DNA from: Psammoneis japonica | Lineage: Eukaryota | Assembly (NCBI GenBank): GCA_008632985.1 | Contig: QPGO01000030.1 | Location: 619,135-670,515, forward strand | Reading direction: 5' to 3' | DNA length: 51,381 nucleotides | Shown here: piece after piece, positions 897-26,367 of the stretch | Layout: each line of letters opens with the position of its first letter | Position numbering within the stretch: the stretch's first letter is position 1 | Notes under the pieces: generated by a model | What the model saw: the letters and a program-made list of their open reading frames with translations, nothing else | Database searches by the model: none | Told to the model about the DNA's origin: nothing | Program-made: the position numbers and the translations under genes

Positions 897-1959
897 CTCC
901 CTGCTTGGCTACTTGACGTCCGGTGGTCGGTGGATGTTATTCTACCTTGGCATTCCGCACTCCAAAACCCCAAATTGCGGTACAATTCTACGTGTCTCTA
1001 GTAATGGACGACGGCAAGACGCAATTTCAAAGAGGAGCTAGCTGCCTGAAGGTGTACAAGGAGAAGACTGATGAAACAGATGATGACCATTGGACTGCTC
1101 TTGAAGGAGTGGACGAGTGTGACACCACGCTTGCATTGAAAAAGCAGGAAGAAGCTGGAGAGGAGCGCGATCCAAGCAGCCTTGAAGAACACATGGGCGG
1201 ACTGGCTCGGAAAGAAGACAATGCAGGGGGGTTGCGATGAGGGTTTGGGAATGGTGGCGTGTTCACCATGAGATGCATTTGTCCATGTCTGAAGCTGCAC
1301 ATCCAGCTGGTGGTCCTCGTGCAACTTTCCAGTGCTTCAGTCAAGCAAGTGAGTTTTTTCTAAGCTCAACAAGCACGTTGTTGAGACAGCCCAGTGCAAC
1401 ACGTTGCACGATGCCACTTTGTTGTGCATCATCTTTTTTCTCATTTGCACAAGGGATGTGATGTCAATCAAGACCATTGGCGGTGCTGCAAGAGAAGCCC
1501 AGAGTCAAGAGAGCTCTTTCTCAGCTCGAGTGGGCTCGCACGATGCAATTTTGTTGTGTTGTTTTTTCTCATTGGCAGAAGGGGCATGATGCAGTGGCAA
1601 CACACAGTGCAGCAGCAATGTGATTGACATGGTGCAGCAGCAATGTGATGTGCCGGCAATGCAATGCAGCAAAATGCAATCAGGAAACAATGAACGGTGT
1701 CATTGCTGTGCCACTGGTGATGAAGCACCACTGCACCAAACCTGGCACTGCACCACGTGCACTCTACGCAGTGCGCACTCTGCGCAATGCATTGCCCACT
1801 CAGCTCACAGAAATTCCTGTTTTGCACACTGCGCAATGAGCCTGTGCCTGTGTGCACCACATGTGCAGCATGTGCCATTTGTGCAATGGTGTGGCGATGC
1901 AAAAAAATGTTCATTGCACGTGGGTTGTTTGAAGCTTCACTGGACGGCTGTGTCTCTTT

Positions 1960-4150
1960 GTCTGTGTGACCATGGAGAGAGCAGTGATGAGGTGTTTGGA
2001 TGCTGGAATGATGAACATCATTGTGTTTGTCAGTCTTAGAGAGAAGGACATTCACAATGTTCTTGGGCTTCATTTGGATGTTCATCACACTGGCAAACAC
2101 TGGCAAACCAATGCTTGGTGTGTGACACCATGCGAGTGGTGTCGCAAAATGCCCCACTGGCACACCATCTTTGTTGCCCACAACCTCTCTCCAATCAAGA
2201 ACTTGACAACAGCACTTGCTGCAGTCAACAAATGGCTTGGTGCAATGAGCAGAGAGTGCACAACATTGCACATCATGTCATCATCAACAATGTGTTCCAT
2301 CTTGCACTTGTTGTCTTTCTTCTTCTTGTGGTTTGTCACCCAACTCTCTCAATGAAAGCTGATGAAGTTGAGGACATGCCCGAGCAGTGTTTTTGTTCAT
2401 TTGGTTGGGCAAATCCTGACAGGCCAGCAATTTTCCTCCAGATCTTCNNNNNNNNNNNNNNNNNNNNNNNNNNNNNNNNNNNNNNNNNNNNNNNNNNNNN
2501 NNNNNNNNNNNNNNNNNNNNNNNNNNNNNNNNNNNNNNNNNNNNNNNNNNNNNNNNNNNNNNNNNNNNNNNNNNNNNNNNNNNNNNNNNNNNNNNNNNNN
2601 NNNNNNNNNNNNNNNNNNNNNNNNNNNNNNNNNNNNNNNNNNNNNNNNNNNNNNNNNNNNACATTGATGTCAAAGTCAAGCAAATTTTGAAATGGTTTGA
2701 TGAGAGAAAATGAAAGCACATGGCTGGCTCTTGTTGTTGCTTGCATCTTCATGTTTCATCTCTGATTTGTGTTTTTCTGTTTTTTAAAACAGCTTTGCAG
2801 AGACACTTGAACAACGCATTGACTGGCATCAACAACGATGACAACTTAGAAAGTCTTCTGTGCCAGTCCATTTAGATGCTCACACCAAGCAAAGATGCAT
2901 GTTCACCTGCTTCTCAAGCTTTGCCATGGCTGCTTTCTGAGGATGAGGCAGCCTCAATGAGGGCAGCTGCAGAGAAAAAGAAAGCCAGCAGGGCTGTTGA
3001 CCTTTCTTGAAGCAGCTGACAGAAAGTGCTCATTTGAATGACTTGGAGTTGATGAGAATTGGTGGTTGTTGGGTGACTGGGTGAGACCAGCCTGTGTTTT
3101 CTTGCAAGTTGAGCCCATTGCCTTGAGGCAAGAGAAGAGTTCAGGGGGGAGGAAAAGCACAGGTGGGCAGGTCTGTTTCATGTGAATCCAATGAGAGAGA
3201 CATGTGTTGTCAACTTTCCTGTCTCTGGGATGGGTTTGTTGACAAGAGTGCTCCAAAACTCAGCCACAGGATGCATGTGACCCAGCTTTTGGGTTTTGTG
3301 CAATGACACAACAACTGTCCACAAGCTTGGGGGGGGCAGTTCAGAGGTTGGTTGTCAACAACTTTGACTGCAGAGACAATTGGGCTCATGTGGTTCTGCT
3401 TGTTCAGAGTTGCAACGAGAAAGGGATGTTGTCTTGGGAGGGAGCTTGACAGCAAAAAGATGAAGGGCACATCTGTCACACACATCAAACAAGCTCCTTG
3501 GCCACTTTGGACATGCAAGAGGGCCCCAAGAGAAGGTTCTCAGCCTCCTGCTGCATGTGACTGAGCAACACATTGCAGCCAAAGATTGTCATTGACAGAT
3601 GTTAATTTTCAACAACACAGCAGAAATCCAGGCTTGCACCCTCATGGGGTTGCTCTTGTCAGGCATGGAAACAAGGGGGCTGAGTTGTTTGTGCATGGCT
3701 CCCAGTTTGAAAGGGAGCATGCACACAAAAAGCACAAAATCCAATCATTTGTCATTGAAACCACAGGCTCAGAGCCTGTGTTAAAGCCACATCATGCAAA
3801 ACATCTGAGATTCTCAACAGAAAAGAAGCCCAGCATTGTGACATGCACAGATTGAGTCAAACAATTGAAAGACAAAAGCAACTGGCATTCAAACATTGAG
3901 AGTTGATGACCTCAAAAAAATGGTGAGTGGTGGAATGGCCGGGAGTCCCAACAATGACTGAGGAAATTTGAAACTCAGCATGTTTTGCATGTGCACAAGA
4001 AGTGATTTGTGTGAAGTCTTGTCATCTTCAAAAGTCATTGGACACTGTTTTGTGTGCAAAGACCACTTGCAAATTTGGTCATTTTGAAAAGGGTCAGCCC
4101 AAAATCCTGACTTTGTCTCATTGTCTGTCTCCAGTCTGGTCGGGGTCAGG
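1960..4150 (+). mobile_element. Degenerate Helitron-like element, 3' part (Pif1 helicase C-terminus), copy L
   Basis: Fragments translate to LLKLCHGCFL (Pif1 LKLYxG), VLCNDTTTVHKLGG, NNFDCRDNWAHVVL and RVATRKG (helicase motifs V/VI). Homologous in inverted orientation to 9365-9471 plus 19078-20550. Confidence 0.7.
2448..2660. other. Assembly gap (N run)
   Basis: Run of N bases. Confidence 1.
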
Positions 4151-5629
4151 GCAGGGGTGGGGGGTGGGGTGGGAGACACAGACAGATTTGCTCTCATTCT
4201 TTTCAGCATTACATTGGTTCCTTGCCACGCAGTTTTTGTGTGTCTGAACTCCTTGCAAAAAAATGTGAGCACATCAGATTGTCAAGCAGATGCAGCGCTG
4301 AATTGAGTGGGCATGTTGAAAATGTGTGGCTGAAGAAAATTTTGGCACTGCTTTGTGACAGATCATTTCTTGCCTTTGGGAGCCAAGAGTCTGTCTGCTT
4401 GGCACTGTGACAACCACATGACACCTGGAGGTTGTTTTCTTGTGCTTTCATGTTTGCTTTTGGTTTGAGTCACACATGTGTGGAGGGAACTTTGTTTGTT
4501 TTTTCAAAGCCATTGTTGAAGACAATGCTGGCATGCTGCTCCTTTTCCAGCCACAGAGCCTTTGTGCCAGTGTTGCAACAACACATGGCAGATGTTCAGC
4601 TGTTAGAAACAAGAGCAATTTTCCTGATTTGTGTTTGGGTCACATGGCTGCAGGGATGGCAGTGCTGCAAGAACTTGCATGCCCCCAGGCAGGAAACAAA
4701 CGCAAATCTGCTGTTGCTCATCAATTGCAAGGGTTTTCCAGCCATGGCATCCAAGTGCTTGCAGGTGCAACACCAGAGTGTCAAGGGCTGGACATCTGAG
4801 TGTTGAACATCCAGGCATTGGGAAATGCTCATGACACAACATGGGAAAATGAATCTGAGTCAAGTGATGCGGCACAGAGAGGTGTTGCTGCACCTTTTTG
4901 GATGAGGCTCATGGCTGACAAGGTTGGTCCATGGCTGCACAATGGGCTTGCAGAGCACAGGCCTTGCAATGATGCCTTTGGTCAACTGTCATCTGAGCAA
5001 AGCCAGCAACAACAGTGCTGAGCACACATGGGGCAGCATCTGCCAGAAGTTTGTGTTTGTGGTGGCTGTTGCCACCTGCATTGCACAGGTGTCTCCACAT
5101 TGATGGTGGTGAATTGTGCGCTCCTCCTTCAGTCAACACTGGATTGAGCCAGCACTGGCAGGGTGAGCTTTGCTCTTTTCTGGGTTCATCACAAGCAGCG
5201 CCTAACTCAGGAACAGATTGCAGAGTCATTGAGAAATGCAAACATTTTTTGCCCACCTCGCAGCAGCACCAAAATGTGGCCCAAGCTGCGCTGAATGGCA
5301 GACATGGAAAACAGTCAGTCTGCTGCATGCACCCTGTGCCACACAGCATTTCATCAATGTGGCACACATTGCTGTCCAAAAATGCTGCACCAGTCAAAAG
5401 GCATTTTAATTTGCAGGCCCCATTTTGCCTTGATGACTTCTTTGGCACATTTGGCAGATTTTGTGTGATTTGTGCAGGAGGAAGCAATGAGTTGGCATGG
5501 TCAAAGAACACTCAATGCTGGCCAACAGAGGCTCAACACAATGATGCATGGCAGTCACAAATGGAAAAATCAAAAGGTGTTTTGGCGACTTGGTTGTTGC
5601 CCCCATTTGCTTCAGTGCAAATGACTTTG

Positions 5630-6046
5630 GCAAAAATTGGAGTTTGGCACACAGCTGTGGCATCATGTTGCTGCTCACTTGTTGGCTCTGCTTGAGGTGG
5701 TGTAAAAAAAAAGTGGTGCATCATTGAAAAGCACTCATTTAGCAGGCATCCTCACATTGTCACCCTTGGTTGTTGCAAAATTCTTGGCACATTTCTGGAG
5801 TGGTGCCTTGTTCCATGAAAATGTGCTGGGAATTTGGCACACAGCTGTGGCATCATTTCAATGTGTTGCTGCAGCCAATTTGGCTGTGCTTGAGAGGTGA
5901 GAAAACAAAAGTGATGCTGTCAAAGAGCCCTTGTTCTGCAGATGACATTGTCACCCTTGATTGTCAGAAAATTCTCAGTGCTTCTGGGGTGATGCCTTGC
6001 TTGAGCCATGAAAATGCACTTGGAGCTCGGCATGCAGCTGCAGCAC
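5630..6046. repeat. Diverged tandem duplication, ~190-bp unit, ~2.2 copies
   Basis: TTTGGCACACAGCTGTGGCATCAT at ~5643 and ~5833, with a third partial copy at ~6021; CATTGTCACCCTTG at ~5755 and ~5946; CCATGAAAATG at ~5813 and ~6006. Confidence 0.8.
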
Positions 6047-9000
6047 AGCAAGGGAGGTGGTCCAGTGGAATGAAATGATCAAAACAACAGCCCACAGAAG
6101 CTTGACACCAACCTTCTCACACACCAGACCCCAAATCTTGTCACCCAGTTGCTCCACCTTGTTCTGGGCTTGGCATTGACTTTTCTTCGAAAAGCATGCA
6201 TTTTCCTTGTTTTGCTCATGTCTGACACATTCTTGCTTGTCAAATCTCACTGCTGAGCACACTCAGGATTTTTCAGACATGCTTTTAAAATTGCCCGAGG
6301 AGCTGTTGTCACCCCCACCCCTGCTGTGCAACATGCACAGGGGAAAAGTTTTTTGACATTTGATGATTGTTGCTGCAGGCATGCTTGCACTCATGGTGAA
6401 AATCTCTGGGACAGAGACTTTCACAGACATGATGCTCCCATCCACAAGCATTTTATCTTCTCTGTTGACAGCCCTTTGCCATCACAGCCATGGGTGACAA
6501 AGAGCAGCTTTTGATCAAAAAGGTGGTGGGGTTCGCACAAGCCACATGGCGTGCAAAATGTTTTCTGTCTTTTGTGTGCAAAGGAGCTCTTGACATTGCA
6601 ACATTGTGGTGCAATGTTTGAAAGGATTTTCTGTGCCCACATTGCATGCTGATGCAAAACATCATTCTCATGTTTTTTCCACCCTGCACACAACACTCAT
6701 CTGTGCAGCACAACTTGCACAGATTGTTGAAAACAAGGCATCAAGCATCAGCCAAAATTCAGTTGGACAGGCTGTGTTGTCAATGTGAGCACTTTTTGCT
6801 GGTTTTTGATTTTTGCATCATGCAACAGTTTACAAAGATTTGGTGCATCTGCAAAGATGTTGCTGTTCTTCACTGTGCTGTGAACAACAAAACATGTTTG
6901 CACAAGTGCACAATTGTTTGCCACTCATGCACACCAGCTTTGGCAATGACAAATGATGTCATTTGTGTGCACTTCAATGTTGCTGCCAATGGCAGGCAAC
7001 ATCAGCCAGCACATGATTTTTTGGTGTTGTTTGCATTTTCTGCCAGGAACCCTTGGCTGCACTTCACCCTGTTTCACCTTGTTTCTTCTCCCACTGCTCT
7101 TGGCTTTTGTTCTCATTGAAGTGCCTCTTTCCAACTGGGAAGACTTGTGTCTCTTGCTGTTTCTTGTTCCCTCTCTTGTGCCATGTTGTTGTGGCATCAT
7201 CCCTCATTGCAGAAACAGAGAAAACTGACATCAACTTGTGTGGTTTGTGCAAGAGGGTGAGTGATTTGCAGTTTTCAGCATTCTCACCTCCAAGTTTTTC
7301 CCTTGCCAACCACACCAAGCCATTTCCTGCTGCCATGCCCATGAACTTTTTCTCCTTTTGATGAAGTCAGAAAAGCTGACTGTGAGCTGTGTGCTGTTTT
7401 CTCAATTGCTTTTGCATTTTTTGTGTTTTGTCTTGCCTTGTTTGCATTGTCCCATGTCCCTCCATTTGTTTCACAAGACCGTTGTTCCTTCTCATTTTCT
7501 GTCTTGCTGAAATCAAATCTTCAGCTCATGTTGCTTCCTGGGAAAACCTTTGTTTTGTCTCTTGTCTGTCTGTGTCTTTGCAAAAGCAGGAGTTTTCACC
7601 TTCAAGGGCATTGTGAATTTGTCAATCTTTGTGTTGCTTTGAATTGAATGACTTTTTCTCAATTGACAAAGGGCTTTTGTTGTGAGCAACAGTTGTTTGC
7701 CATTCCACAACTTTCACGTGTGCTTGGTGCTCCACTCTTTCTCCCTTTCTCTTGCTCAACATTTTTGCATTACAAGGTGCAACAATTCATTTTTGATCTT
7801 GTTTGGCATTTCCCATTCTTGCAAAGAACACTCTGCATGTTTTTTTGAATTTGCCGTTCAATGTTGAAATGGCTGTTTCCCAATGTGCCCTTGTCTCATG
7901 CTGCCAGAACATGAAACTGTCACCACCAACTCATGCCCCACAGCAAAACAGCAAGTTTGTTGCTGCTCTTTGGCATTGCCATTGTTTTTGTGGTGTGCTT
8001 GATTGTGAACCTTGCCACCCACAACCAAGAAAACAGCACCCAACCACAGGGTGATGGTTGCACATGCCACCAGACTCTCAATGACTCCAGCGCCATTTTG
8101 AGTCTTTCCCAGCAGCTCATCAAACATCTGTGGCTCAGTTGATGATCCCCTCTGATCTGCTCATTAAAGCCTGTTGCCATTGTCTGCACTTGGCTGGCTT
8201 TTTGTGTCATTTTAGTTGTGCAGCATCAGAAAAAACTGCAGGACAAATTTGCTCAACTGAAGGATGGTGTGTGCAACAAATCCAACAAAAGGACGAGGCT
8301 GTTTGGAGCCAGGCAATCATGATGATCAAAATTCTCTCCAAGAGGAAGTTGAAAAGTTGAAAATGACAAGATCAAGAATGTGTTGACTCACCTTGGAGCT
8401 GTTGCCACAGATCAGATCTTGGCAGGCACTGCAGGAGCTGACTGTGCACATGATGGAAGGATGTGGTGCTGTTGCTCAAAGCCCACAGCATGTCTCATCG
8501 CATGTGCAAACATTTCAGAATGTGCACAGAAGGCAATGTCTGGGCTGTTTGCCAACCTCTCAAATTTGAAGCTCTCTTCTCCTTGGCACCAGTGCTTTGC
8601 AGGCAGTGCACCCAGTGCTGTGGAAATCTGAGTTGCAGTCAAGTTCATCATGTGTGCTGGCATGGTCCAAAAGGAAGTCATCATCAAATTCAGCATTTTT
8701 TCAGTGATGGCAGAAAGCCAGAGAGGACTGTGAGAATGACCATGGGCACCAAAGCTGCACCTCAAAGAAGAGCCTGGGTTCTCTTTGTTTTGGCTTTGTT
8801 GTTTTCTTTTTCAAAATCTGGGGGCTTTCCTCTTTGCTTTCATCAATTGCCAACACAAGGGCAAGCTGTGCAACTGCATCTTTTGCTTTTCCAGTCAAAT
8901 TCTCCCAGTCATTGCAAAACAGGAAAACAAACTGAAAGCACTGTGCTCCTTTGGCAGCACTCCTCCTGGAATGACATCTGGCAGGTTGCCAAGCACTGCT

Positions 9001-9367
9001 TGTGCAGAGCCCATCATTTCCAACAAAACCAAGTGCACAACGTTGCTCAAGATGACACAAAAGGAAATTGTTCGACATCAGCCAAGAACATTGGGGAAAA
9101 GAGGCATTTGGTGCAAACAAATGACATTTGTCAACTCTGACAATGACAAAGCCATGACATGTGAGTTGGTTTTCACCATTTCTTGCTTGCTCTTGGTGTG
9201 CACCTCATCAGATCTTTCACATTGCACACTTTTTGCACACACAACAACCACTGCAAAATGGCCCTGCATGTCTCTGGCCACAGCTTGGTTAAAATGAGAA
9301 ACAACACCAAACACCAGGAGGCAGCAAGAGTGATGTGGTGGTGTTGTGAACAAAATCAAAAAAACCA

Positions 9368-9388
9368 CTTGGCCCCAACTGGGCCAAG
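9368..9388 (-). other. Subterminal hairpin of Helitron copy R
   Basis: Perfect 8-bp stem CTTGGCCC-caact-GGGCCAAG located where homology between the two Helitron copies ends, followed on the minus strand by TGG and a T run. Confidence 0.6.
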
Positions 9389-9471
9389 GAGACAGATGGG
9401 CAGGCCCAAGATGAAGTCGGGGTTTGAGGCTGACCACTTTCAAAATGACCAAATTTGCAAGCAGTCTTTTT

Positions 9472-9619
9472 TGAACAATTTTGATTGCTTGTGCTTCAAG
9501 TTGAATGTGACCCTTGCAGGTGCCTGCCTCTGACTCATGTGTGTGCCAACTGTGATCTCTCCTTGGCTGCTCTCACAATTGTTCCAAGAGTGTCAAGCAT
9601 TGTCAAAGCAGATCTTGTG
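9472..9619 (+). repeat. Gypsy-1 5' LTR
   Basis: TGAACAATTTT...TGCTTCAAGTTGAA.GTGACCC...TTCCAAGA.TGTCAAG...GATCTTG shared with 18891-19077. Confidence 0.8.
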
Positions 9620-10029
9620 CTGCAATTGCAGTTGTTGTCACAGCTTGTTCTGCATTTTGCTTTGTGGCAATGACACCCACTTCAACAGGATGCAAACTGG
9701 TGAAAAAAGAAAAGAGGTTGATTTGAGCTTGGGTGGCAAATTGGGCTCAAGAATGAAAAGAACATTGCACTCATGCTCACAAAATTGGCGACACTGAGCA
9801 GTGCTTGTCTGCCCCCACCTGATTTGGAAAATTGCGCTGATGCTCTTGAGTTTGGTTTGGTTTGGTCATTGATTTTCTTGTTGTCTGGATTCAGTGGGGC
9901 TGCATCATTTGTGTTCTTGTTGTTGTCATCATTGATTGGTCAATCACCAAAAAATGTTTGAAGCACCATGTGTGAAGAGCTGCTCTGGAGACTGTGTGCA
10001 TTGAGTGCAAGACAACATTTGTTCATTCC

Positions 10030-13000
10030 TTGCTCAAAGATGTAAAATTGATGCTGGAGTTTGATGATGGGTCAAAACTGTCTTGTTCTTGTTCTGTTCA
10101 CACCAGAGGGCATGGGGTTGAGGCATTGTTGCACGTGGAAGATCACTTTTTGTAAAGCAGCTCACCAGTCGCAGTGTGCCGCTGGCCTTGAACTTTTTGA
10201 TTATTTTGAAGATTGTTTGCATGATGTTGCCGAAGAGTGCATGCATGCATGATTTGACAAAGCAGCACAATCATTTTGTTTGCAATTCATGAAACCTGCT
10301 GCTTGGGATGCAACAAAAGTGTGTCTTCCAACTTGCAACAAACCACATTCAGCAGAGGCTGTTGTGCACGCAGATTGCATGGACACTTCATTTTGTTGTG
10401 CCAGCCGTTTGCTCAGAGCTGCTCCTGTCTTGTTGCAGCAAGAAACAAAGAACACACTGTTCCACACCTTCCCATTGCAGCGGCAGCAGCTCTGCATCCA
10501 AGTGGGCAAGTCTCTCATTGCAGATGCTGTCAAAGACATTCAGACACATGTGGAAAACAAGAAAGCATTTGCTGATGGCAAAAATGATTGGAAAAGGAGT
10601 GGCAAGAGCAGCAACAGCAGAAACAGGAACAAAAGCAGGCAAAAATGCAGTGGCTCTGGTGGAGGCAGTCATGAAAGAGGCCAAAAGCCTGGCCCCAATG
10701 ATCCTTGTCCAGCTCCGTGGCATCAAGGTTCACACACCACCTGGAGACAAAGTCACAACAATCCAGCCAGCCCCAATTGTTGAGGTTTTCAAGGTCAAGG
10801 TGGAGACCGTGGAGGCCAAGGCAACAGCTGTGGAGGCCCTGGAGAAACTTTGGAGGCTGTGGCAATGGAGGCTGTGGCAATGCCAGAGAACACTGTGGTG
10901 GCCATGGAGGCAGTCAAAGCAGCTGCCACCACAACCACAATTGCATTGACAACCAAGGCAGCAATGACGGGAATCATCACCAAGGCAGTGGCCAGCACCA
11001 CTGGGCAAGTCAAGGGCAGAGTGCATCTGAGAGCAATGCCAGACATTCTGAGACCCAAGGATGGGGTCCAAATGCTGCTCAAGCAGACAACATGAATGCT
11101 CAGGCTCAAAAAGCTCCTTGTGGTGAAGCACGCCATTTTGATCCAATTAGACAAGGCCCTCCAAATTGTGGAGGAGTGGGGAGGTGCTTGCCTGATGGAC
11201 AATGGTGCTGTCCTCAGCACAGTTGATTTCAAGAAGCCAGCAGCTTCAGAGCTGAATGTTCCCAGTCACCTGCATGTGTTGAAAGCAAAGAAAATTGTTT
11301 GGTTCTGAAGAATCTGTGAGCCATGAACATTCTTGTGATGAAAATTTGTTTGTTGGTTGTGTTGCCAAGAACCCATTGCATGATGAACTTGAAGATGCTG
11401 CAGTCAATTGCATGAGCAACAAGGAGAATGTGTTTGACCAAGACACACTTGATTTCAATGCTCCTCTTGGCAAGATGGGATCTCAAGTTTCTGACAGTGC
11501 CACAGTGCCAACAGTGCTCATGGTTGCTTGTGCCATCCAACAACATGAGGCACTCAAGTGCTCATTTGATTCAGGCAGTTTGCGTGCACTTGTCCATTCC
11601 AAGGTTTTGCCACCAGGAGCTGATCCATCAGATGCCAGCAGGAGCATTTCAATCCAGAAGATGGGTTGCCCTCAGCAACCCAGCCTTTTCAGAATTCAAC
11701 AAAACAAGATGAGTCAATGGAATTTCAGCTCATGTGTTTGATGCAACATGTGCCATGTCCCTGTGATGTCATTCTGGGGTGTGATTTTCTCTAGAAGACC
11801 AGTCTGAAACTCAACTGCAAGGCTGAAGCTCTTTGATGGCTGGGCTGCATGATGCCAATGAAGGGCACACTCAGCATTGGTGGAAGGCCTGCAATTTGTG
11901 CATGGCACTGGACCAGCTCAACAAGTTTGACAGAGAATGCAAAGATGAAGAAGACTGTCACCATGATGCCTGCAACAGCTGTGTTCTTGATGTCAAAGTG
12001 TGAAGCCACTAATGCCACAGAGGCAGTGGGCAGTGTTGATCATCTGACCAATGAAGAAAAGAAAAAGCTCAAAGCAGCATCAGTTGTGATGGCATGTTTG
12101 ATGGCAAACTTGGCCATTGTCCTCATGAAAATGTGCACTTGGATGCCAAAGAAAATGCCCTGCCTTGTCACTCAAAACCTTGTGCTGCTCCACAAGTTTG
12201 TCAGGAAGCATGCAAAAGGGAGCCAACCAAAGCATCTGGTGGATGTTGGAGTGCTGCAACCATGTGGGCCAACCAAGTGGTGGGTGACAGGTGCCTTTGT
12301 TGTTCCCAAGAAAGACCGCCAAGTGAGATGGGTGCTGGACTTCCACAAACTCAATGAGGTCCTCAAGAGGAAGATTTGTCCATCCCAAGCAATCCAAGAT
12401 GTTCCACAGTGCCAGGCTGGTCACAACAAGCATTTCACAAAACTTGACATTACCACGTTCTGCTGTGCTTTAGAATTGGACAGTGAGAGCAAAGATTTTG
12501 CTGCAATTGTTGCACCACACAGAAAATTTCAATGATGTTGGATGACTGTGGGACTCAAGCCAGCTCCAGATGTTGCTCAAGCTGCCGCTGAAAAGATTGT
12601 GCATGGCTTCAATGTTGAATCTTACATTGACAATGTTGGTGCATTTCTTGATGTTAATTTTGATGCTCACTCAACTCATTTGGGTGAAGTTCTCTGTTGC
12701 CTGCAGGAGAACAAACTCAAAGTTAACCTGCTCAAATGTGAGTGGAGTGTGCAAGAGACCAATTTCCTGGGGCATTGGCTGACACACCAGATGGAATCAA
12801 GCCATGGAAGAACAAGATTGAGGCTGTTCTGCAATTGCAGCTGCCCAAGATGATGAGTTGACTCCACTCCTTTCTTGGCACAGTGGCCCATTTTGCAACA
12901 TGTGGCCTTGCCATTTTCATGCTCTTGTTGTGCCTTTGGCAACCAACCCAACTGGCAAAGGTGCTTTTGAGTGGACAGATGATTGTCATCGTGCACTCCA

Positions 13001-13436
13001 GGAAATGAAGGTCATTGTGGCCAGCAAAGCACTGGTGGCACATGCTGACCACAACCAAACCTCTCATGTCTGGGCTGATTCTTCCAACTGTCAAATGGGT
13101 GTGGCTGAAATCCAAGATGGCAAGCCAGAGGCCAGAGGTGTGTTGGTCCAAAATGCCATCTAAAGCTCAGCATGACTGTTCAACAATTGAAAAAGAATTG
13201 CTTGCTGTGGCCACGTGTTTCAAAGAGTTTTTTGCACAATTTCACCTGGCATGGACACTTGACTGTTTTCATGGATCAAAAAAATCTCACCTTTCAAACT
13301 CTTGATTCTCAATGCATTCTCATGTGGTGTCTTTGCCTTGATGTTTTTGCTCCTTGGTTTGAGCATGTGGAAGCACAGAATGATGCACTGGCCAATTGCT
13401 TTTCTCATCTGCCACAGATGGATCTGCCTTTGGAAG
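10030..13436 (+). pseudogene. Gypsy-1 gag, protease, RT and RNase H (frameshifted)
   Basis: Gag knuckle DPCPAPWHQGSHTTW...NP; protease FDSGS (~11565); RT AFVVPKKD.QVRWVLDFHKLN and SYIDN (YxDD, 12623); RNase H WADSSNCQMG, CSTIEKELLAV, DQKNLTF and ALANCFSHLP. Confidence 0.9.
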
Positions 13437-14137
13437 TGCACTGTGCTTGAAGAATGAGTGTGAACAGAAGTGAAATAAATCACAAAAAGTGGAAAATTGT
13501 GAGATTGGACTTTGTTCTGTGATTTTGGGTTTCTCCAAAGGAGCTCTCAATGGCAGTGCCAAGACTGTTTGCACTGCTTTTGCAGACAAAAGGCCTTGCA
13601 GAGAATCTGATTGTGACAACAGATTGTCTGGACAGAGTCAGCATTGACATCTTGTGCATCAACATTGTCTGTCAATTGCACTTGTTCAGATCTGTGTGAC
13701 TGATCTGTCCTTTGCACGCGCTCGCAATTGTGGCACGATTGACAAATGTGGCAATGCAGCGTCAAACAATTGCAGAGTTTTTCACAACAATCAGATTGCT
13801 GTCAGTCAATTGCAGGCAGCACCACTGCACAGCAGCAATTGGTTGCTTGCAATCATGAAGGAATTGCACGGTCTGTTGAGCTGATTGCAAACTGAGCCAT
13901 TTCAATGATTTTGGCTAAAAAAGAGCTTGAATTTTGACTGCAATCAATTGCAACAGCTGACTGTGATTGCAGCCTTAGCTCTTTTCCAACAATGAGCTCA
14001 TTGCAATTGAGTTTGCAACAGTGATTGCAACCAAAGTGGGGCCAATTGCAGTCGATCCCAGCAACTTGTTATGATGCTGCATCAACACATGATTGTGGGT
14101 GTGTGTGTTTCTTTTCTGCATGACAATGCATGTTGCA
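13437..14137 (-). repeat. Gypsy-2 3' LTR (contains MITE)
   Basis: Matches 17171-17503 over 13437-13756; PPT-like GGGGAGGCAAA on the minus strand at 14148-14138, immediately followed by TG. Inner boundary uncertain. Confidence 0.7.
13757..14079. mobile_element. 323-bp MITE, probably Tc1/mariner-type
   Basis: Imperfect TIRs CAGCGTCAAACAATTGC and (reverse complement) CAGCATCATAACAAGTTGC; absent from the other LTR; flanked by TG on the left and CA on the right, where a TA target duplication is expected. Confidence 0.65.
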
Positions 14138-17100
14138 TTTGCCTCCCCAGCTGCACATTGGAGTCATTCATCAAATGGCATCACACAATGGACATTGATG
14201 GTGTCAACAATGTTGCCACTTTTGAGAGTCTTTTTTCAGCAAAATTTTTTTCTTCCACTCTCTCTCTGTGTGTGGAGTGCATTGAGCATTCTCTTGAGTG
14301 TTGCTCTCATTGCAATTTCTTGTTTTTGTTTCTGGACAAACTTCCAGTCAGCAATGTGTCAAGTGTCAAGCATCATGTCTGTGTTGAAGACAAGTTGTCC
14401 CAACGCAGCCGGCATGGCAGTGTGACGTGCAGAAGGTGTTGCAAAGGCTGCTGCTGACAGCATTCCAGCAAGCGCATCTTCTGTGTCCAGTGGTGCATTT
14501 TGTGGGTCAAATGCACACAGCATGTTGCGGCCCAGTGCTTGATGCACATGTTCCATTGCAGCTCTGGCTTGTGAATTTTGTGCAGTTGTGGGCTCACATT
14601 TGATGCCATGATCATCTTGAACCATGTTTTGGAGTTGGTGTTTGGTGAGCTCGCTTTCACATGATCACAGGCAACTGACAATGGCCAACAAGGATGTCTG
14701 CTCAACCATGTCCTTTCCATCAGTCCAGCAGCAGTTGTGGATTCTTCATTTGGAATGTCCATGACTTCAAACCATCCAATTGCTGGGTCAATCAAAGTCA
14801 AACACTTCAGGACCAGGGGTTTCTTTCTTGCCTTTTGACACATCTTGTGTGGTCCAATTGGATCCACACATGGTCTTTCCCATGCCACTGATTCTGTGCA
14901 CTCAGGAGGCAAATGTCCACATTTCTTTTGTTTCTTCTTTTTTAATTTTTGGCACGTCTCACACTTGGACATGCATTTTTGCACTTTTTCATCATGCAGG
15001 GCAGACTGCAACAGAGGTGTTGTGAGATTGTTTCTTCAGCTCTGTTCATGCCAGGGTGCAGAAGTTGCGCACAGCACCAATCTGTTGCCACTTTTTGCAA
15101 GGTCTTTGGAATGATGAGATTTCATCCTTGTGACATGTGATCATCAACTGGTCTTGCTCACCTCCACAAAAAGTCTTTGCACACAACATGTTGTGTCTGA
15201 CAATTTGGAGAGAATGTCATTGTCCCTTTTTGTTCGCAAGAGAACTTTGTGTGTCAATGGAAAGACATTGTTGCAGGATTTGGGAGTTGCCTTCTCTGCC
15301 AATTCTTCAAAGCTGAGGTTTTCCATGGGCTCTGTTTTCTTCACAGCAGGTTGGCTGATTGAGTCTGCAATGATGTCGGCCTTGCCCTCAAGGCAAATCA
15401 TTTTGGGGCTGTGTTCTTCTGTTGTTAGATGCCAATGCATGACTCTGTCAGTTGCAAATTTCTTGTGAGTGAGATTTTTATGATCTGTGTGTGTCTTCAA
15501 CTGTTGGCCAATCAGGATGTTGCAGAACTCTTTAAGTTGTCAATGCAAGTCCTGACAAATTCCAAACCTGCCATTGGCTCACTCATGTGCACTTGAAAAA
15601 CATCCAGGGATTCGCAGATTCCCGCGGGGAGTTTGCAATGTCCACACTTGCCCTGTGGCATCACAATCATGTGCAAACATTGTGCATGTGGTGTCAACTC
15701 AATGTGGTGGCATCCCATGTTCAAATCAAGCAATGCTGTGCACATGGAGCCTTCTGGCTTCTGCAGCATGTCCTGAATTTTGGGAAAAGGATGCAGAGTG
15801 AGCATTGGTTGCTTGCTCAGCTGACAACAAAAGTCAGACAAGAACCAAACTTGGCCATTTTGTCAGGTTGAACAAAGGTTGAGCTGCTCCCCAAGAAAGT
15901 GTTCATGTGAGCAATGACCGCTGGACCCCAGTGTGCATTGCCTTTGCCCCATTTCCAGCTTTCCTGACATCCAGTGATGTGCGTGACTCCTTGACAGGAG
16001 CCAGTCATTCCTCAGAATCACTGCAAGTCATTTTTTCAAATTGATGGTTTTCCTCACTGAGGGTGTCAGAGCCTGAATCTTTGGCTTGGCACTTCTCATC
16101 TTTCATCAGGAAACTTGGCTTGAGGGTTTTCTGAAATGCTTGAGCAACCACAATGTTCAAGTCTCCCTTTTGTGAGGCTTTTTTTGTGTCACAATGAGAC
16201 CACATGCAATTGCTGTTTGAACAGTGCCTTTTCAGGTCTGCTTCAAAATTCTCACAGCATTCCTTTGCTGGTCTTTTAAGCACCCAGCATTTGTCTGCAT
16301 TGTGTGTGGTCTTTTCACAACAACTGCACCACTTGTTGAATCAGAATGTTTGGCACCAGATTGAAAACCATGTTTGGGACCATGATGGGATCTGTCCTTG
16401 GTTTTGGAACCAGGCTTGATGCTGGGATCACCCTTGACATGAATTTGATCAAAGATGTCCTTTGCAACCTCCATGTGCTCCAAAAACTCCACCAACTTGT
16501 CAAAGGAGAGATCAAGAATTTCAAAACCTCCTTGGAGAGTGGACTGACATCATCATCATCATCCAGATTCTGGTTTGGCTCAAAACAAGGACAGCACTTG
16601 AAGTCTTTGTTTGCTTCTTGGGCCCAAGCAGCAATTTCTTGGATCTTGGCCTTCATGGAGTCTGGCTTCTTCAGATTGCATCGCTGATGATGCTCCTGAT
16701 TTTGAAGTGTGTTCTTTGGAAAGAAATGGTTAGAGAGGTGATGCACCCAGTGGGCATTTTTGAAGGCTCCATTGTCATCTTTGGAGCTGGCATTTGCCAC
16801 CTTGTTTCAAAAACTTGGAGAGTGTCTCCCTGCAACAACGTGCACATCATGCGGAACTTGTTGGACTGATCTTGAATGTTCTGCCCAACTGAGACCTTCT
16901 GACAGTTCTTGAGGAACTCAGTGCACTTTTGAGCTCCCTGCTTGTTGCACTGCTTGACATTGGTCATGTGGGTGTGGCTCTTTTTATCTCCAGGATAGAA
17001 ACATTGCTCCATTTTGAGGCACTGGCTTGGTTTGAGCGTCTTTGGCTTGGAAATTGACTCCAATGGCACAGGTGCAATTTTCCCCTGCTTGACAGAAGAC

Positions 17101-17170
17101 TTGCCATTAGTTGCATGAGGCAAAAGCTTCATTTTTGTGTTTTCACCTTTTCTGTGGTGTGCTGGCACAA

Positions 17171-17503
17171 TGCACTGTGCTTGAAAAACAAGTGCAAATG
17201 AAAGCAAAGTGAATCACAAAAAGTGGAAAATTGTGAGATCAGATTTTGTTCTGTGATTTTGGGTTTCTCTGAAGGAGTTCTCAATGGCCTGGACTGTTTG
17301 TGCTGCTTCTGCAGACGAAAGACCTTGCTGAGAATTTGATTGCAACAACAGATTGTCTGGACATGATTGGCACTGACATCTTGTGTGGCAACATCATCTG
17401 TTGATTGTGTTTGCAATTTTTGACATCCAGTCAGATCTGTGTGACCACTGATCTGTCCTTTGCACACATCCATGATTGTGGCACAATTGACAAATGCAAT
17501 GAT
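17171..17503 (-). repeat. Gypsy-2 5' LTR
   Basis: Direct repeat of 13437-13756; gag ATG lies ~40 bp downstream on the minus strand. Confidence 0.85.
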
Positions 17504-17504
17504 G

Positions 17505-18760
17505 GAAGAGTTTGAGCCCAGGAAGCAAGTGCAAGGGCAAGATTGTCAATTTTGAAAAGTTGAGCATGCCAGAGAAGACCATCCATTTTGAAAAGTTGAG
17601 CACACCAGAGCCAGTGCAGGAAGATGAGGTGGATGGTGGTGCTGGTCTTTTTGAGTGCTGTCAGCACATGCCAGCTGACTCATCTGCTGAGACCAGTGCT
17701 TCTCGTTCTGTTCTTAAATGATCCACCAGAGTTGTTTGAATGTTTCTTGAATCACAATTGGCCAAGTTTCAAGGAGATGGCAAACCTGACTGAAAGGTTG
17801 TGATTGCAGCAGTTCTGGTTTGAGGACCAGACAGCTGAGCCAGCAGAGACAGGTGCATCCCACAAACTTTTGACATGAAAATTGTGAACAACTGTCCTTT
17901 GATTTGTCATTGTGCACAAGTGAATGACCCACCTGGTGTGTGGAAGATTGTGCTCCCACTGCTTGTTGCTTGATGTTGTCTCATGGTGCCATTGTGTGCT
18001 TGGGCACTGTGGGATTGTGCACTTGTCTGAGAGCATCTGCACTCACTTTCATCATCCTGATTTGCTCTGTTGCTGCAACTCACTTGCACATGTTGCCTGA
18101 CAATGCCACAGGCAACTTGGACCTGGCTGTGTGAAGTTGCAGCTCAAGATGCAGAGATGAAGCTGCTCACTTGCATTGACGCTGTTGCTGGATTGACTGA
18201 ACTGGTGCAAACTGAAAGCAAAACTTCTCAACATGTTTCTGACAAGTTTCAAAATCTCTGGTTGTCTCACATCCCAGACTGAACCATTGTGTGCATGACA
18301 ATGGAGGAGAATTCATTGGTTGTGTGTTTCAGATGTTTCTGAATCAAGCAAGCATGGCAGATGTGTGCCAGCTGCATTGCACAATCCTCAAGCCAACTTT
18401 GTTTGCAAGAGAATGCATCAAACATCAAACAGTGGCTGACATTTTGTGAGCTGTGCTTGTTGCCAACAGAGCACCAGTTTGGATCTGCCAACAGTGGCAG
18501 ATTTGGCAGCAATTTGAGCCAGCTGTCAAGCACTGATCAACAAGTGTCTTTGGCATTGGATTTTGAAGCATCAATCCTTTGATTGTCAAGTTGGGCAAGA
18601 TGTTCTGCTCAAGTCTGTTGACCCTGCCAAACTGGAGGCTTGAGCATTTGGCTCATTTTGGATGGCACAAGTCCATGTCAATGGGGCTGTCTCAGCACTG
18701 TCTCGGCACTGCACATTGTTGAGCAGATTGACACTCATTGAGTGGCACCATGTCAAAGCT
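17505..18760 (+). pseudogene. Gypsy-1 integrase (resumes after Gypsy-2)
   Basis: KGKIVNFEKL linker; WCHCVLGHCG zinc-finger part; core LTCIDAV..LTELV...KTSQHV..KF.NLWLS, CVHDNGGEFIG and NPQAN.VC.RMHQ; C-terminal QVHVNG. Confidence 0.85.
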
Positions 18761-18890
18761 TGGGGTTTTCTTCCCAATGTCTGGGTTTCCCTTTGCTCGT
18801 GGTTGAGTTCAAAATTGATGAGATGAATCATGGCACACAGCAGCTCCCAGTTCCTTTCACCATGGGTGCTGCTGGAAGGAGGGGGAAGAG

Positions 18891-19077
18891 TGAACAATTT
18901 TCACAACTCATGCTTCAAGTTGAAAGTGACCCCTCCTCTGACATGTGCAAATTGACTGATGCACTGGATGTTTGAGACAGTCATTGCTTGGGAAAGTTTG
19001 CTCCTGCAATCTCTCCTCAGTTGGTTTTTCTCACAATCATTCCAAGAATGTCAAGTCTTGTCAAGCTGGATCTTGCA
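18891..19077 (+). repeat. Gypsy-1 3' LTR
   Basis: Starts TG directly after the 17-nt polypurine tract GGAAGGAGGGGGAAGAG, ends CA, and matches 9472-9619. Confidence 0.85.
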
Positions 19078-21241
19078 TTTTTACACAAAATGGGGTCTCC
19101 AATGACTTTTGAAGGCTTCAAGATTCAATCTAAATTGCTGCACAAACAAACACAGAACATGCCAATTTTCAATGCAGCTGACTCCTGGCCAGCCAATTTG
19201 CCATTTTTTCATTTTAATTAAAAGGTTGCTTGTTTTAAATGCTTGAACAATGCCAGTTGCTTTTGTCTTTCAGTTGTTCACCCCAGTCTGTGCACATGAT
19301 TTGGCAACTCTTTCCACTGAGAGACTGATGATGGATTTTTGGATTTTGTGCTTTTTGTGCACACGCTTGCTTCATTTCAACCCAGGGATCATGTGCAAAC
19401 AAAGCAACCCCCTTGTTTCTGTGCCTGTCAAGGACAATCACATGACACAAGCCTGGATCATTGCTGCAGTGTTGAACTCAATGTCCAATGATGATGACAA
19501 TCTTTGGTCACTGCACCTTGTGCAGTTGTTTCCAGCAGGTGCCTTGGAGCCCTTTTGTGCCCCTGAAGTGGCCAAGGAATTTGTTCAGTCCCAGCAACAT
19601 GCCCTTCATTTTCCTGCCATCAAGCTGCTTTCCAAGACAAAGTCCCTTTCTTGTTGTCACTCTGGACAGAACCACACAAACCAAATTGTCTCTGCAGCCA
19701 AAGTTGTTGACAACTGGGCTCTCAATTGTCCCTCCCTGGAGCCTGTGTGTGGTTGTTGCATTGTTGCACAAAACTGGGAACTGAGTCATCTGCATCCTCT
19801 GGTTGATTCTTTGAGTGCTCTTGTTGTTGATGAAGCCCATGATCAGAGGAACAGGAAAATTGACAACACACATCTCTCTCCGCAGAGCCACATGTGAAAT
19901 GGACTTCCCACCCTGCCTTTTCAGATGAAAAAAGCCTCCTCTTTGTGTGCAAATGACCGACACTTCAGTGAATGACATCACTCAGCTTGTGGTTGGATTG
20001 CTGACAGATCAAGGTTTTTGACTGTCTCCCAAATGTTGCCATGAGAGCCAGTGTTGATGATGGTGATGATCTGAAGAAAAATGGCTGGCCTGTCAGGACC
20101 AATCCAATCACAATGGTGAAAACACCACTGTGTCACATCCTCAACTTTGTCAGTTTGTCAAAAATTGGGCTGCAAAGCACAAAGAAGACAACAAGTGCAA
20201 GACAGAGCATGATGTTTGCTTGTGATGATGAGTTGTGCAACATTGTGCACTCTCTGCCCATTGCACCCAACACCATTTGCAGACTGCAAGCACCATCATC
20301 AAGTTGATCAGAGAGGTGCGTGATGAAGATGATGCTGATCAGACATTTTCTTGCAGCACTCACCACACAGATGTGCAGCCAAGTCCTGGTTTGCTGGTGA
20401 TGAACATCATCAAAACAAAGCCCAAGAGCAGTGCAGATGTCCTTCTCTCTGAGACTGGCAACTGTGTTGTTGTTGCCAATCATTGAAGCATGAAACATTT
20501 TGTCCCAACTCTTTGTTTGTGAAGACAATGAGAAACAGCCTTTCAACAAAGTGTCAGCACATCAACGAAGCTCCTCCATTTTGTGGCAATTTTCTCCTGA
20601 GTCAGCCGCCAACAATCATCTGCATTGTCATGTCAAGAAAGATGTGCCGTGGCACTGATGCCACCACTGTGTCGTCATCATGAAAGTCCTGGAGGCATTG
20701 TGCATCGCACAAACTTTTGAATGCTGAGCTGCTGGTGGGGGCAACTGCCATGATTTCAGCATTGTCACACTTGAAATTGCACACAGTGCGCAGAATCATG
20801 CACGAGTTTCTGCTGGCATGCCAAAAATGAACTTGACAAAGCAAGCTGTGTCCTTGTGTCCAGAGTTGTCCAAAAGTTGTCCATGTCTGGGTTTTTCCTG
20901 GAAACAACTCTGCAGCACGATCGACGCTGGAAGAGGAGGCCTCCAAAATGTGAGGTTTTGCAAGGGGAAAAAGCCAAAGTGCGCACTTAGAATCAGAGGT
21001 AATTTTTGCCACCGACGGATTCAGCAATTTTGAAGCTCGTTTCTACTCTCCACTCTAGCTAGCTGCTAGCTAGAGCTAGCTACCGGCCAGCTGGCAGTGG
21101 TGGCTACAGCAGGTAGAGTGGGGCTTCGATTTGCGCGCGCGCTCGACATCGCGCGCGAGGGACACCAATAACGTCTGGCCGACTAACCGGCAAAATATTA
21201 TGATCAGAAACAAAAAATCTCACCCACCGCCCACCGCCACC

Positions 21242-22090
21242 ATGAGCCTGCGACTATACCCCAACCCGCTTCAAAGAACACCCTCCATTTCAGCCGTATT
21301 GTATCTTTTTCTATTTCTTCTAACTGTTACGGTGAAAGCAGAGCGGCTCGATGGTCGTCATTCGTTCTCCCTCACTACGTTCAATCCCGTCGGAAAGTTA
21401 GGTCAGGTTGAGCGAGCGACACAAGCCGCGTCGCTTGGCACTCCCGTCGTGGCGTTAAAATACAGGAATGAAATCTTGATGGGGTGTCCTCAAGCACTGC
21501 CATCTCCGCTAGTACATGATGACGGAACGGCACGATTCTGCAGAATAACTCGCAACATTGTAGTAAGCCACTCGGGGCTAGGTGCGGATGGTCGTGTTGT
21601 TGTCGCTGCAGCTCAGCGAATGGCAGTTGAGCATGCCTATACGTTTGACGAAGCTATACCCATCGAGCTATTCTTAGAGGAAGTTTCTCTCTTATTCCAA
21701 GAATATACCATGAAACCAGCTTCAAGGCCTTTCGGATGCACGTTGCTTGTGGCACATGTGCCTGATCCGGATGAGATTGACAATCATGGTGACGAGCCAG
21801 AGCTATATCGCGTCGACCCCTCTGGATCGGTCGAGTCACTTCGAACTGTTTTATCAATTGGAAGTGTGAGAAGTGGCGATTTTATTGCGTCCCTGGAGGA
21901 GCTAGCGAATCAGCTTGATGAAGATGATGTGACCGAAACTAGAGGAAAACTTGTTGACATGCTGAAATCGCATTTTCACAAGTCTGCGCCATCTAGTGAA
22001 AAGGCGGAGGATGGGAACCTCCCATTCCTTACTGCTACCTTGAATGCTGATGGCTTGGTAGTGAGACGTCATTCTGCAAGCTCTAAGTGA
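21242..22090 (+). CDS. 20S proteasome subunit alpha type-2-like, with N-terminal signal-peptide-like extension
   Basis: HSFSLTTFNPVGKLGQVE, SGLGADGRVVV, QEYTMKPASRPFGCTLLVA and LYRVDPSG are alpha-2 signatures; hydrophobic AVLYLFLFLLTVTVKA precedes them. Alternative ATG at 21200. Confidence 0.9.
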   Translation: MSLRLYPNPLQRTPSISAVLYLFLFLLTVTVKAERLDGRHSFSLTTFNPVGKLGQVERATQAASLGTPVVALKYRNEILMGCPQALPSPLVHDDGTARFCRITRNIVVSHSGLGADGRVVVAAAQRMAVEHAYTFDEAIPIELFLEEVSLLFQEYTMKPASRPFGCTLLVAHVPDPDEIDNHGDEPELYRVDPSGSVESLRTVLSIGSVRSGDFIASLEELANQLDEDDVTETRGKLVDMLKSHFHKSAPSSEKAEDGNLPFLTATLNADGLVVRRHSASSK

Positions 22091-23313: not shown

Positions 23314-23439
23314 ATGACGGTAAATTTGCTGGCTTTGAAACTTGTTCTCTGAGCTGCAACACACGTTCAATGAGCAGCACGATTTTTAACTTTGTAGGTA
23401 ACACACTTGAGTGTGCACCCGCTAGAGAGCTTGGGCCTA

Positions 23440-24470: not shown

Positions 24471-24622
24471 ACTTCTCGTGATGACGGTGGGACACGACGT
24501 CATCACAACATTCGTTCCGCCCGAAAAAACAAAATCTCCCTCCGACGACAAACCCTTGCTTGCGCCCGATATACTGTAGCCTCCAAGAGAACTACTGTAC
24601 TCGTAGTGCAGATCGCTTTATC

Positions 24623-26144: not shown

Positions 26145-26367
26145 CGTCGTACAAGACAAGCTTTCCAATTTGAGCGCTCCACTGCATATCGTTAACTTGG
26201 GCATGAAACTAGGGATTCGGGACATGCCATTCGTAAACCATGTAAAGTCTGAATTAGCGCGATTAGCAAAGTTGCAGCGACCCTTGAACGCTCCACTATC
26301 GATCACATTTCGCGTTCTAGTAAGAGGTACGCATCATCTCGATTTTACGCCTACAAAGTACTCCATT

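Follow-up and report, generated by a model that had tools for sequence, protein, structure and literature searches.

TpA loss in transposon DNA of a diatom contig: a candidate genome defence with chemistry opposite to that of fungal repeat-induced point mutation

To our knowledge, every mutator known to be directed at transposons, including fungal repeat-induced point mutation (RIP), the decay of 5-methylcytosine (5mC) and APOBEC, works through cytosine. TadA-type adenosine deaminases prefer the motif UAC(G) and make Tyr-to-Cys edits in E. coli mRNAs; we know of TadA-type activity on DNA only from directed evolution. In PMC9998398, diatom transposons are described as CpG-methylated and diatom DNMT4 as related to RID; because DNMT4 is a cytosine enzyme, it would offer no explanation for a loss of TA. 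For dinoflagellate 5-hydroxymethyluracil (5hmU), PMC11572971 refers to earlier work that found preferential replacement of T in TA and TC. Here we analyse 51,381 nucleotides of contig QPGO01000030.1, deposited for Psammoneis japonica (positions 619,135 to 670,515; this whole stretch is hereafter the window, and its own coordinates are used throughout), in which blocks of transposon DNA have nearly lost the dinucleotide TA and, in most of them, CG as well. All tests were made on this 51-kb window, on database relatives and on one sequencing run.

Transposon DNA of every class seen was very probably hypermutated after insertion, at the DNA level, by near-saturating transitions that left the adjacent genes untouched. 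The classes affected are Gypsy long terminal repeat (LTR) elements, LTRs included, one remnant of Tc1/mariner type and an element that is probably of piggyBac type. The footprint is real and, to the extent that we could check, undescribed: a literature search that left most subscription journals outside its coverage turned up no account of transposons hypermutated at TpA, whether in diatoms or in other organisms.

Composition and edges of the transposon blocks

With expected dinucleotide counts computed from base composition, Block A, a stretch of some 20 kb at 1000-21050 that consists of degraded transposons nested in one another, contained TA 58 times against 1444 expected and CG 128 times against 1045, with an excess of TG (2453 against 1356) and CA (2160 against 1113). 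The genic control at 24500-41950, which is unmutated and carries kinase, symplekin, Rit1 and other genes, contained CG 1059 times against 1015 expected and TA 709 times against 1169. Shifts between transposon DNA and genes exceeded 14 per kb in four of the 16 dinucleotides, namely CG (-51.2), TA (-38.2), TG (+50.5) and CA (+40.3); CG and TA together lost 89 per kb, TG and CA together gained 90.8 per kb, and AA and TT hardly differed between the two. The total of pyrimidine-purine (YR) steps was constant, genes having 241.7 and transposon DNA 243.1 of them per kb. The two self-complementary YR steps were thus converted into the two non-self-complementary ones.

A first-pass annotation of the window had counted CG and TA as 0 and 0 at 3001-3300 and as 24 and 14 at 21301-21600, and had described TG and CA as dominant with AA and TT retained; the counts are exact, and the description agrees with the values above. 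It had placed the feature at 1000-21050, where the depletion was borne out, but the feature proved to be wider. An isolated island of 1 kb between normal genes (23400-24400; CG 11 against 64 expected, TA 4 against 57) and Block D, a transposon block that runs from 43800 to the window end at 51381 (CG 130 against 459, TA 27 against 487, with CG partly kept from about 45400), are likewise hypermutated, and Block C (42000-43800, plus strand) is depleted of TA (20 against 113) but not of CG (91 against 111). TA was more depleted than CG in every block.

The right edge of Block A is sharp, lying inside one 200-base bin about 100 bases ahead of a proteasome-subunit ORF (open reading frame): CG and TA numbered 5 and 1, respectively, at 20801-21000, and 17 and 13 at 21001-21200. 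The left edge is gradual, TA being gone from about 1000 and CG only from about 2000. Within the block, at about 2401-2800, the assembly has a gap of 213 N. At 1000-2000 and 45400-51381, TA is already near zero and CG is partly lost (observed-to-expected ratio, o/e, 0.2-0.5), and the extent of CG loss may be usable as a clock for the time since each element was hit. Stops in Block A (1400-21000) comprised 25 TAA, 15 TAG and 562 TGA. Because TAA and TAG are nearly gone from 1400-21000 and 43800-51381, long false ORFs run in all six frames, and gene finders will call false proteins in both regions; the transposon blocks and the stretch around the island (22900-25300) hold 243 ORFs of at least 70 amino acids.

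An error of sequencing, base calling or assembly at modified bases of the transposon DNA could mimic such a pattern, as modification-dependent miscalling would be confined to probably methylated DNA, as is seen here. However, contigs of the sequencing run X1, which were assembled by others from exact 31-letter words at a word depth of about 60-75, hold the same letters over thousands of bases. X1 has 95% of the sampled words of 12001-22000; a contig of 5076 bases spans 4060-9133 with one differing letter, another of 4067 bases spans 9440-13506 with two, and a third of 15,945 bases (15.9 kb), starting at 20804, crosses the edge between transposon and genes. The assembled bases are thus upheld by independently assembled contigs. 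Strand-dependent misreading of modified bases should yield clashing TG and CA reads at each site and would halve the depth; the X1 depth in transposon DNA was not halved, which argues against it. Furthermore, copies differ site by site, and paralogs in the same run read CG and TA. Runs X2 and X3 added almost nothing, and no RNA run was among the runs found to contain the sequence. Among 968 places where X1 contigs carry other letters, the contexts of 40 were mixed and too few for a spectrum. An artefact of sequencing or assembly is thus largely excluded and seems to us very improbable, with the agreement of X1 validating the assembly, not the biology.

Direction and timing of the changes

Two Gypsy elements are nested in Block A. 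Because the DNA is too degraded for profile annotation, they were traced by tblastn with database homologs; among 239 stop-to-stop ORFs of the transposon blocks, Pfam gave only weak matches to RVT_1 and RT_RNaseH_2, one to DDE_3 and a few below threshold, and no deaminase domain. The Gypsy-1 pol remnant (11496-13435, plus strand) comprises the protease side, reverse transcriptase (RT) and RNase H, with Pfam matches to RVT_1 at 12536-12850 and RT_RNaseH_2 at 12822-13302 and tblastn cover by up to 423 homolog pieces. It is interrupted at about 13435 by the insertion of Gypsy-2, and its integrase part continues beyond the nested insertion at 17714-18736 (plus strand; tblastn places, for example, residues 790-946 of protein P0131 at 17975-18356). 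The Gypsy-2 pol remnant (14197-15877, minus strand) was recognized by tblastn and motifs as RT, RNase H and integrase with internal deletions. All four motifs in which the first-pass annotation had read the direction of change were found, three of them in Gypsy-2 pol on the minus strand (LDLNMGCHHIEL (GCHHI) at 15701-15715, CIDN at 15536-15547 and HTDHKNLTH around 15471-15488) and the fourth, DCSTIEKE, in Gypsy-1 pol near 13180-13197 on the plus strand.

The RT region at 11837-12850 was compared with 150 homologs, a column being scored if it had 15 homologs or more and 60% or more of them agreed. Tyr was kept in 1 of 17 columns (Cys 9, His 4, Phe 2, Ser 1) and Arg in 2 of 17 (His 5, Cys 3, Trp 1, Gln 1, others), against 16 of 21 for Asp, 18 of 21 for Gly, 7 of 7 for His and 5 of 6 for Trp. 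When the two protein families were pooled, 1 of 29 Tyr columns was kept; for the remaining residues, with Arg set aside, the figure was 297 of 437 (p = 1.7e-12). At second codon positions, A>G was found at 16 of 29 TpA sites and at 2 of 129 sites where the A follows A, G or C (Fisher p = 2.6e-12); at ApA columns, Lys was kept in 24 of 38 without a single A>G at position 2, and Asn showed A>G in 1 of 11. Over 31 Tyr columns, the fates were Cys 17, His 8, Phe 4, Ser 1 and Tyr 1. Because Tyr columns are lost and A>G is concentrated at TpA, the loss of TA is TpA-specific mutation in which both TA>TG and TA>CA occur. The observation of the first-pass annotation that Tyr changes to both Cys and His, consistent with A>G on either strand, was thus confirmed, and its central proposal, a transposon-restricted A:T>G:C change at TpA on either strand plus CpG decay, holds. 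The three conditions that it had named as refuting (intact relatives that natively lack TA, A>G no commoner at TpA than at other NpA, and assembled bases without support) all turned out in its favour.

Some viruses avoid CpG and UpA jointly, and a lack of TA might likewise be native to the elements, owing to their codon usage or to selection against the step and not to mutation. The relatives do not behave in this way: among 78 related Gypsy loci found in a metagenome scan with the Gypsy RT alignment, TA o/e was 0.43-0.99 and none was TA-depleted, so that this set gave no second DNA example of TA depletion; a scan with the family of the ORF at 42076-43335 found no relative in the metagenomes. 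Homologs retain Tyr and paralogs in the same run retain TA and CG, as expected if intact relatives keep them. Furthermore, catalytic and structural Tyr residues were replaced, the YxDD box included, and non-coding LTRs are equally affected, differing between the two LTRs of one element. Native freedom from TA is hardly credible given these observations.

The loss of CG followed the course expected from 5mC decay, CG>TG/CA, both in the counts of Block A and in the fates of its Arg columns, and 5mC decay had been said to fit the loss of CG while being unable to remove TA. As an account of the whole it fails in Block C. The plus-strand ORF at 42076-43335 (P0271) encodes 419 amino acids, among them 19 Cys and 15 His but not one Tyr; it corresponds to the N-terminal portion of a diatom protein family of about 700 amino acids. 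At its conserved columns Tyr was kept in 0 of 12 (Cys 7, His 3, Phe 2) and Arg in 14 of 16, ten of these being CGN codons. Among 161 homologs, 3 lack Tyr and 7 have at most 1.1% Tyr, against a median of 3.5%. The database protein P0138 (699 amino acids, sourced from NCBI) kept Tyr at 0 of 32 positions relative to a 67%-identical relative (His 16, Cys 12, Phe 3, Val 1), retained Arg at 41 of 46, Gly at 23 of 23 and Trp at 10 of 10, and changed Leu to Pro seven times, as CTA>CCA predicts. Five ordinary relatives retain Tyr, and none of 118 further relatives of P0138 is Tyr-poor, the minimum being 2.2% Tyr. The Tyr-less database proteins come from NCBI, ENA and Logan, with P0138, P0149 and P0231 standing as Tyr-less RT 'proteins' in public collections already. 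Because TA is gone with CG intact in 42000-43800 and in P0138, the two processes are separable and the loss of TA is no side effect of CpG decay. The loss of TA is complete while CG and other residues are intact, and is far faster than background substitution. The family has no Pfam match, and the Atlas clusters nearest to the ORF are piggyBac-type (DDE_Tnp_1_7 scores 0.82-0.89, under the 0.9 line), so that it is possibly a piggyBac-type DDE transposase, which we take as a lead only. In Block D, a Tc1/mariner-type DDE_3 transposase remnant lies at 48916-49359 (plus strand; Pfam, E = 3.3e-9).

When an element inserts, its two LTRs have the same sequence. Those of Gypsy-2 (13435-13756 and 17169-17504, minus strand), which have GAAG at both outer flanks as a candidate target-site duplication, are now 77% identical in four letters and 92% in a purine/pyrimidine alphabet, with 56 transitions and 4 transversions, and 16 of their 77 shared YR steps are discordant, with TG facing CA; the LTR at 13435-13756 retains a small CG cluster that is gone from its partner. 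The repeat segment at 1929-4063 (plus strand) and its inverted partner at 19077-20557 (minus strand) share 69-71% of their bases, and 83-87% of their letters when only purine and pyrimidine are distinguished, with 29 of 117, 25 of 96 and 9 of 39 steps discordant for TG and CA. Over six repeat pairs, that is, the LTR pair and five others, 92 of 403 YR steps were discordant (22.8%). With sites resolved independently in each copy, and the composition of the genes taken as ancestral, 12.5% would be expected had CG alone been lost and 21% had TA been lost as well; in a tandem repeat of the genes, 0 of 73 steps were discordant. The 112 transitions that the repeat pairs show outside YR steps obey no rule of context and resemble ordinary divergence. 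X1 contigs have loose ends that represent paralogs, which match the window at 23-28 of 30 letters in purine/pyrimidine and at 17-19 of 30 in bases. Opposite TG or CA of the window, these paralogs hold CG in six cases and TA in three, with the reverse seen for one CG and no TA; therefore, less mutated copies are present in the same genome. Within this window, only transposon blocks were hit and their copies were resolved separately, suggesting that the mutation took place after insertion, at the DNA level and in each copy separately.

Exact-seed repeat finding and plain blastn recovered few of these repeats, and the purine/pyrimidine alphabet recovered them. Hypermutated elements thus evade ordinary similarity searches, their identity rising from 70-77% to 87-92% after the purine/pyrimidine collapse. 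The summed X1 word depth over the LTRs (13006-13672 and 17008-17674) was about 2900-3200, against about 60 for single-copy DNA; therefore, the LTR family has many copies in the genome at a likeness of at least 80%. Differences among its copies in X1 contigs comprised 654 transitions and 312 transversions. Block A starts and ends with the inverted copies at 1929-4063 and 19077-20557, about 17 kb apart, which could be two opposite copies of one element or the ends of a single large element.

Sequence context and candidate mechanisms

The hypermutated DNA retains 81 TAs in 28.1 kb, 53 of them as Y-TA-R (Y, pyrimidine; R, purine). Relative to genic density, survival was 0.003 for RTAY, a loss of 99.7%, 0.031 for RTAR, 0.056 for YTAY and 0.278 for YTAR. 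A four-parameter model, under which the strands are hit independently of each other and the base 3' of the A sets the chance of a hit, fitted all 10 duplex classes (chi-square 2.7, 6 degrees of freedom, p = 0.84) at per-strand survivals of 0.81 for TAA, 0.30 for TAG, 0.08 for TAC and 0.06 for TAT; uniform survival was rejected (chi-square 232, p = 7e-45). The products agreed with the per-strand model, the gain of TG being greatest in the Y_Y context and that of CA in the R_R context. In the R_Y context the strands were symmetrical (TG 515, CA 491) and without runs (z = 0.02), and runs tests in the transposon blocks found no strand-biased patches of TG or CA (z = -0.56, 0.02, -0.59 and -0.69). 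Residual CGs showed little context bias. This context dependence points to 5'-TAY-3' as the target, much weaker at TAG and weakest at TAA, with the strands hit independently and equally. Among the contexts of TA, depletion is weakest at TTAA, the target site of piggyBac, with 22 left at a ratio of 0.58 to genic density, because neither strand offers TAY.

The strand symmetry bears on RNA editing, in which an ADAR- or ADAT-like enzyme with a preference for a 5' U would convert A to I in transposon transcripts, the changes being fixed through reverse transcription and reinsertion. A-to-G hypermutated retroelements and viruses are known, and RNA adenosine deaminases leave A>G with a 5' T as their signature. 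Such editing would affect the sense strand before integration, whereas here TG and CA are equal, Tyr changes to His as well as to Cys (8 and 17, respectively), and the two LTRs of one element have diverged at YR sites. DNA transposons without an RNA intermediate, represented by the DDE_3 remnant and the probable piggyBac-type ORF, bear the same footprint, and RNA editing is in our view very unlikely to be the source.

The context also bears on error-prone Y-family synthesis in repair, a candidate of the first-pass annotation: a polymerase such as Pol eta, working on methylated or heterochromatic DNA, would leave errors that accumulate in transposons. Pol eta makes A>G errors at WA (W, A or T), with TpA the hottest WA site in antibody hypermutation, and restriction to transposons could follow from the repair of methylated DNA. 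However, ApA is spared, as the Lys and Asn columns indicate, no strand or patch structure was seen, and both the rule of a pyrimidine at +1 and the near-total loss of RTAY would need many error-prone passes over every site. Y-family synthesis is thus the worst fit among the candidates of that annotation, and we consider it improbable. Two further candidates were rejected: GC-biased gene conversion has no TAY context and would oppose the loss of CG, and overshoot by a mismatch glycosylase, of the E. coli VSP type, presupposes a replication error at each site.

These results make it very probable that two separable processes have acted on the transposon DNA. In process (i), CG is converted to TG or CA, in line with the decay of 5mC. 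In process (ii), TA is converted to TG or CA by a change of A:T to G:C at 5'-TAY-3' that is complete before the loss of CG or ordinary substitution shows. An enzyme directed to transposon chromatin or to repeated DNA may read the trinucleotide on one strand at a time; by adenine deamination, A would become hypoxanthine, which pairs with C, and be fixed as G at replication. The footprint has the TadA-like feature of an A with a 5' T and a 3' pyrimidine on one strand, and is also compatible with T>C at RTA. Adenine deamination, as the simplest chemistry, is our favoured guess. Since TA>TG/CA never makes a stop and erases TAA and TAG, inactivation would proceed through the loss of all Tyr codons and other missense changes, not through nonsense as in RIP. 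Process (ii) may serve as a genome defence analogous to fungal RIP with the opposite chemistry. On balance, we slightly favour hypermutation of transposons by two processes, the TA one carried out by a directed enzyme, as the best explanation overall. That process (ii) is an enzyme's work, most simply that of an adenine deaminase, serving as genome defence, has in our judgement not quite an even chance of being right. The fullest form of the proposal is more tentative still: a 'reverse RIP' of diatoms, in which an enzyme guided by chromatin or by homology, in the simplest case a naturally occurring DNA adenine deaminase, would act on TpA in transposon DNA (5'-TAY-3', each strand singly) and would soon change all Tyr codons and the majority of TA steps in an invading element, as a genome defence undescribed in any organism.

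The same footprint can be read with thymine as the base attacked, as T>C at RTA and A>G at TAY share one motif in the duplex and are equally valid readings of it. A dioxygenase of the TET/JBP type would mark the T of 5'-RTA-3' as 5hmU, or perhaps 5-formyluracil (5fU), and mispairing with G or mis-repair would yield T>C, the equivalent at TpA of what 5mC decay does at CpG. If both strands of the palindromic TA step bore the mark, the strand symmetry would be explained, and in dinoflagellates 5hmU made by a TET/JBP homolog is enriched in repeats and silences transposons, according to PMC11572971. The term 'diatom' does not occur in that paper, and nothing we have seen of the literature gives evidence of 5hmU in them. 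In addition, 5hmU itself pairs with A, and the mutagenic step through 5fU is taken from general chemistry. Loss of TA that is complete with CG and other residues intact would also be a very high rate for the passive by-product of a mark. We regard the thymine route as unlikely, though well ahead of RNA editing and Pol eta.

Several points weigh against the preferred reading of an enzyme that deaminates adenine in transposon DNA. The enzyme, the base modification, the targeting signal and the benefit to the host are all proposed from a sequence footprint, in which A>G at TAY and T>C at RTA are one duplex motif, so that the attacked base is not readable from it. We know of no natural DNA adenine deaminase. 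The terms 'transposon-restricted' and 'repeat-targeted' refer to four blocks and their edges in one window, and the protein-level polarity to 29-31 Tyr columns in two element families. The ratio of Cys to His was 12:3 after a pyrimidine and 5:5 after a purine, which is in the predicted direction but not significant. The expected discordance and the context model both assume that the transposons once had the composition of the window's genes. The organism behind P0138 and the further Tyr-less proteins in databases may be this one or another. Finally, X1 is probably the source sample of the window, consists of contigs and not raw reads, and is of a guessed kind ('DNA?').

Host, neighbouring genes and comparison with described systems

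The genes of the window sit between about 21 and 42 kb. The best named relatives of the symplekin ORF are all diatoms (Cylindrotheca, Nitzschia, Pseudo-nitzschia, Skeletonema and Thalassiosira, 52-60% identity), and its top unnamed match is 76% identical; because its best named relatives are diatoms, the host is placed among them, seemingly without a close named reference. The proteasome-subunit ORF (21131-22090) belongs to the genic stretch adjoining Block A, outside the control at 24500-41950. Immediately to the right of the 1-kb island, the ORF at 24485-25225 (plus strand) has a weak match to a GIY-YIG nuclease (E = 8.8e-4), below the Pfam cut-off. At 38336-38884, three tandem copies of a 186-base (62-codon) unit, 88-91% alike, fall inside two overlapping long ORFs, 37105-38436 (plus strand) and 37275-39194 (minus strand), neither of which has a Pfam match. 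P0354, a relative of these diatom Gypsy polyproteins, has a Flavobacteriales metagenome-assembled genome as its source label and is probably a eukaryotic contig binned with a bacterium.

Hypermutation by ADAR or APOBEC resembles the present case in that deaminases drive clustered transitions that inactivate mobile elements. It acts on RNA or first-strand cDNA, on one strand and on retroelements before integration, whereas here both strands, integrated copies and DNA transposons are involved. The decay of 5mC in silenced transposons corresponds to the CG>TG/CA half of the footprint, and the restriction to transposons fits the CpG methylation of diatom transposons described in PMC9998398. Decay of 5mC cannot remove TA, which is gone with CG intact in 42000-43800 and P0138.

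The dinoflagellate 5hmU system, as presented in PMC11572971, is alike in that a base of the TpA step is singled out on repeats, in transposon silencing and in another alga of the SAR group. It differs in being an epigenetic mark with no mutational footprint reported there, and it is not known in diatoms from the sources available to us. If thymine oxidation is the true route, the present footprint would extend this silencing system and show its mutational cost. TadA/ADAT enzymes and the adenine base editors derived from TadA are alike in changing A to G at an A that follows T or U and precedes a pyrimidine, and in recoding Tyr to Cys, and differ in that the natural substrates are RNA. If an adenine deaminase is responsible, it would be the first to occur in nature of a type that base editing had to obtain by directed evolution, and would bring a defined preference for TAY.

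Fungal RIP, in Neurospora and other ascomycetes, is similar in most formal respects: transitions are made at the DNA level in mobile or repeated DNA, with sharp edges, tied to a dinucleotide, on both strands, near saturation and per copy, and the copies become so diverged that ordinary similarity search misses them. The chemistry is the opposite, as the first-pass annotation had held. RIP converts CpA to TpA (C>T), lowers GC and creates stops, whereas here TpA is converted to TpG or CpA, GC barely changes, and the TAA and TAG stops are erased (25 and 15 against 562 TGA), none being creatable. The excess of TpA that defines RIP is absent, with TpA reduced by 38.2 per kb, TG and CA raised by 90.8 per kb and Tyr replaced by Cys or His, and the host is a diatom, of a lineage responsible for a large share of ocean photosynthesis. 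The erasure of TpA by A:T>G:C in integrated DNA would thus, if true, be a new kind of genome defence, sharing the form of RIP with the opposite direction of change.

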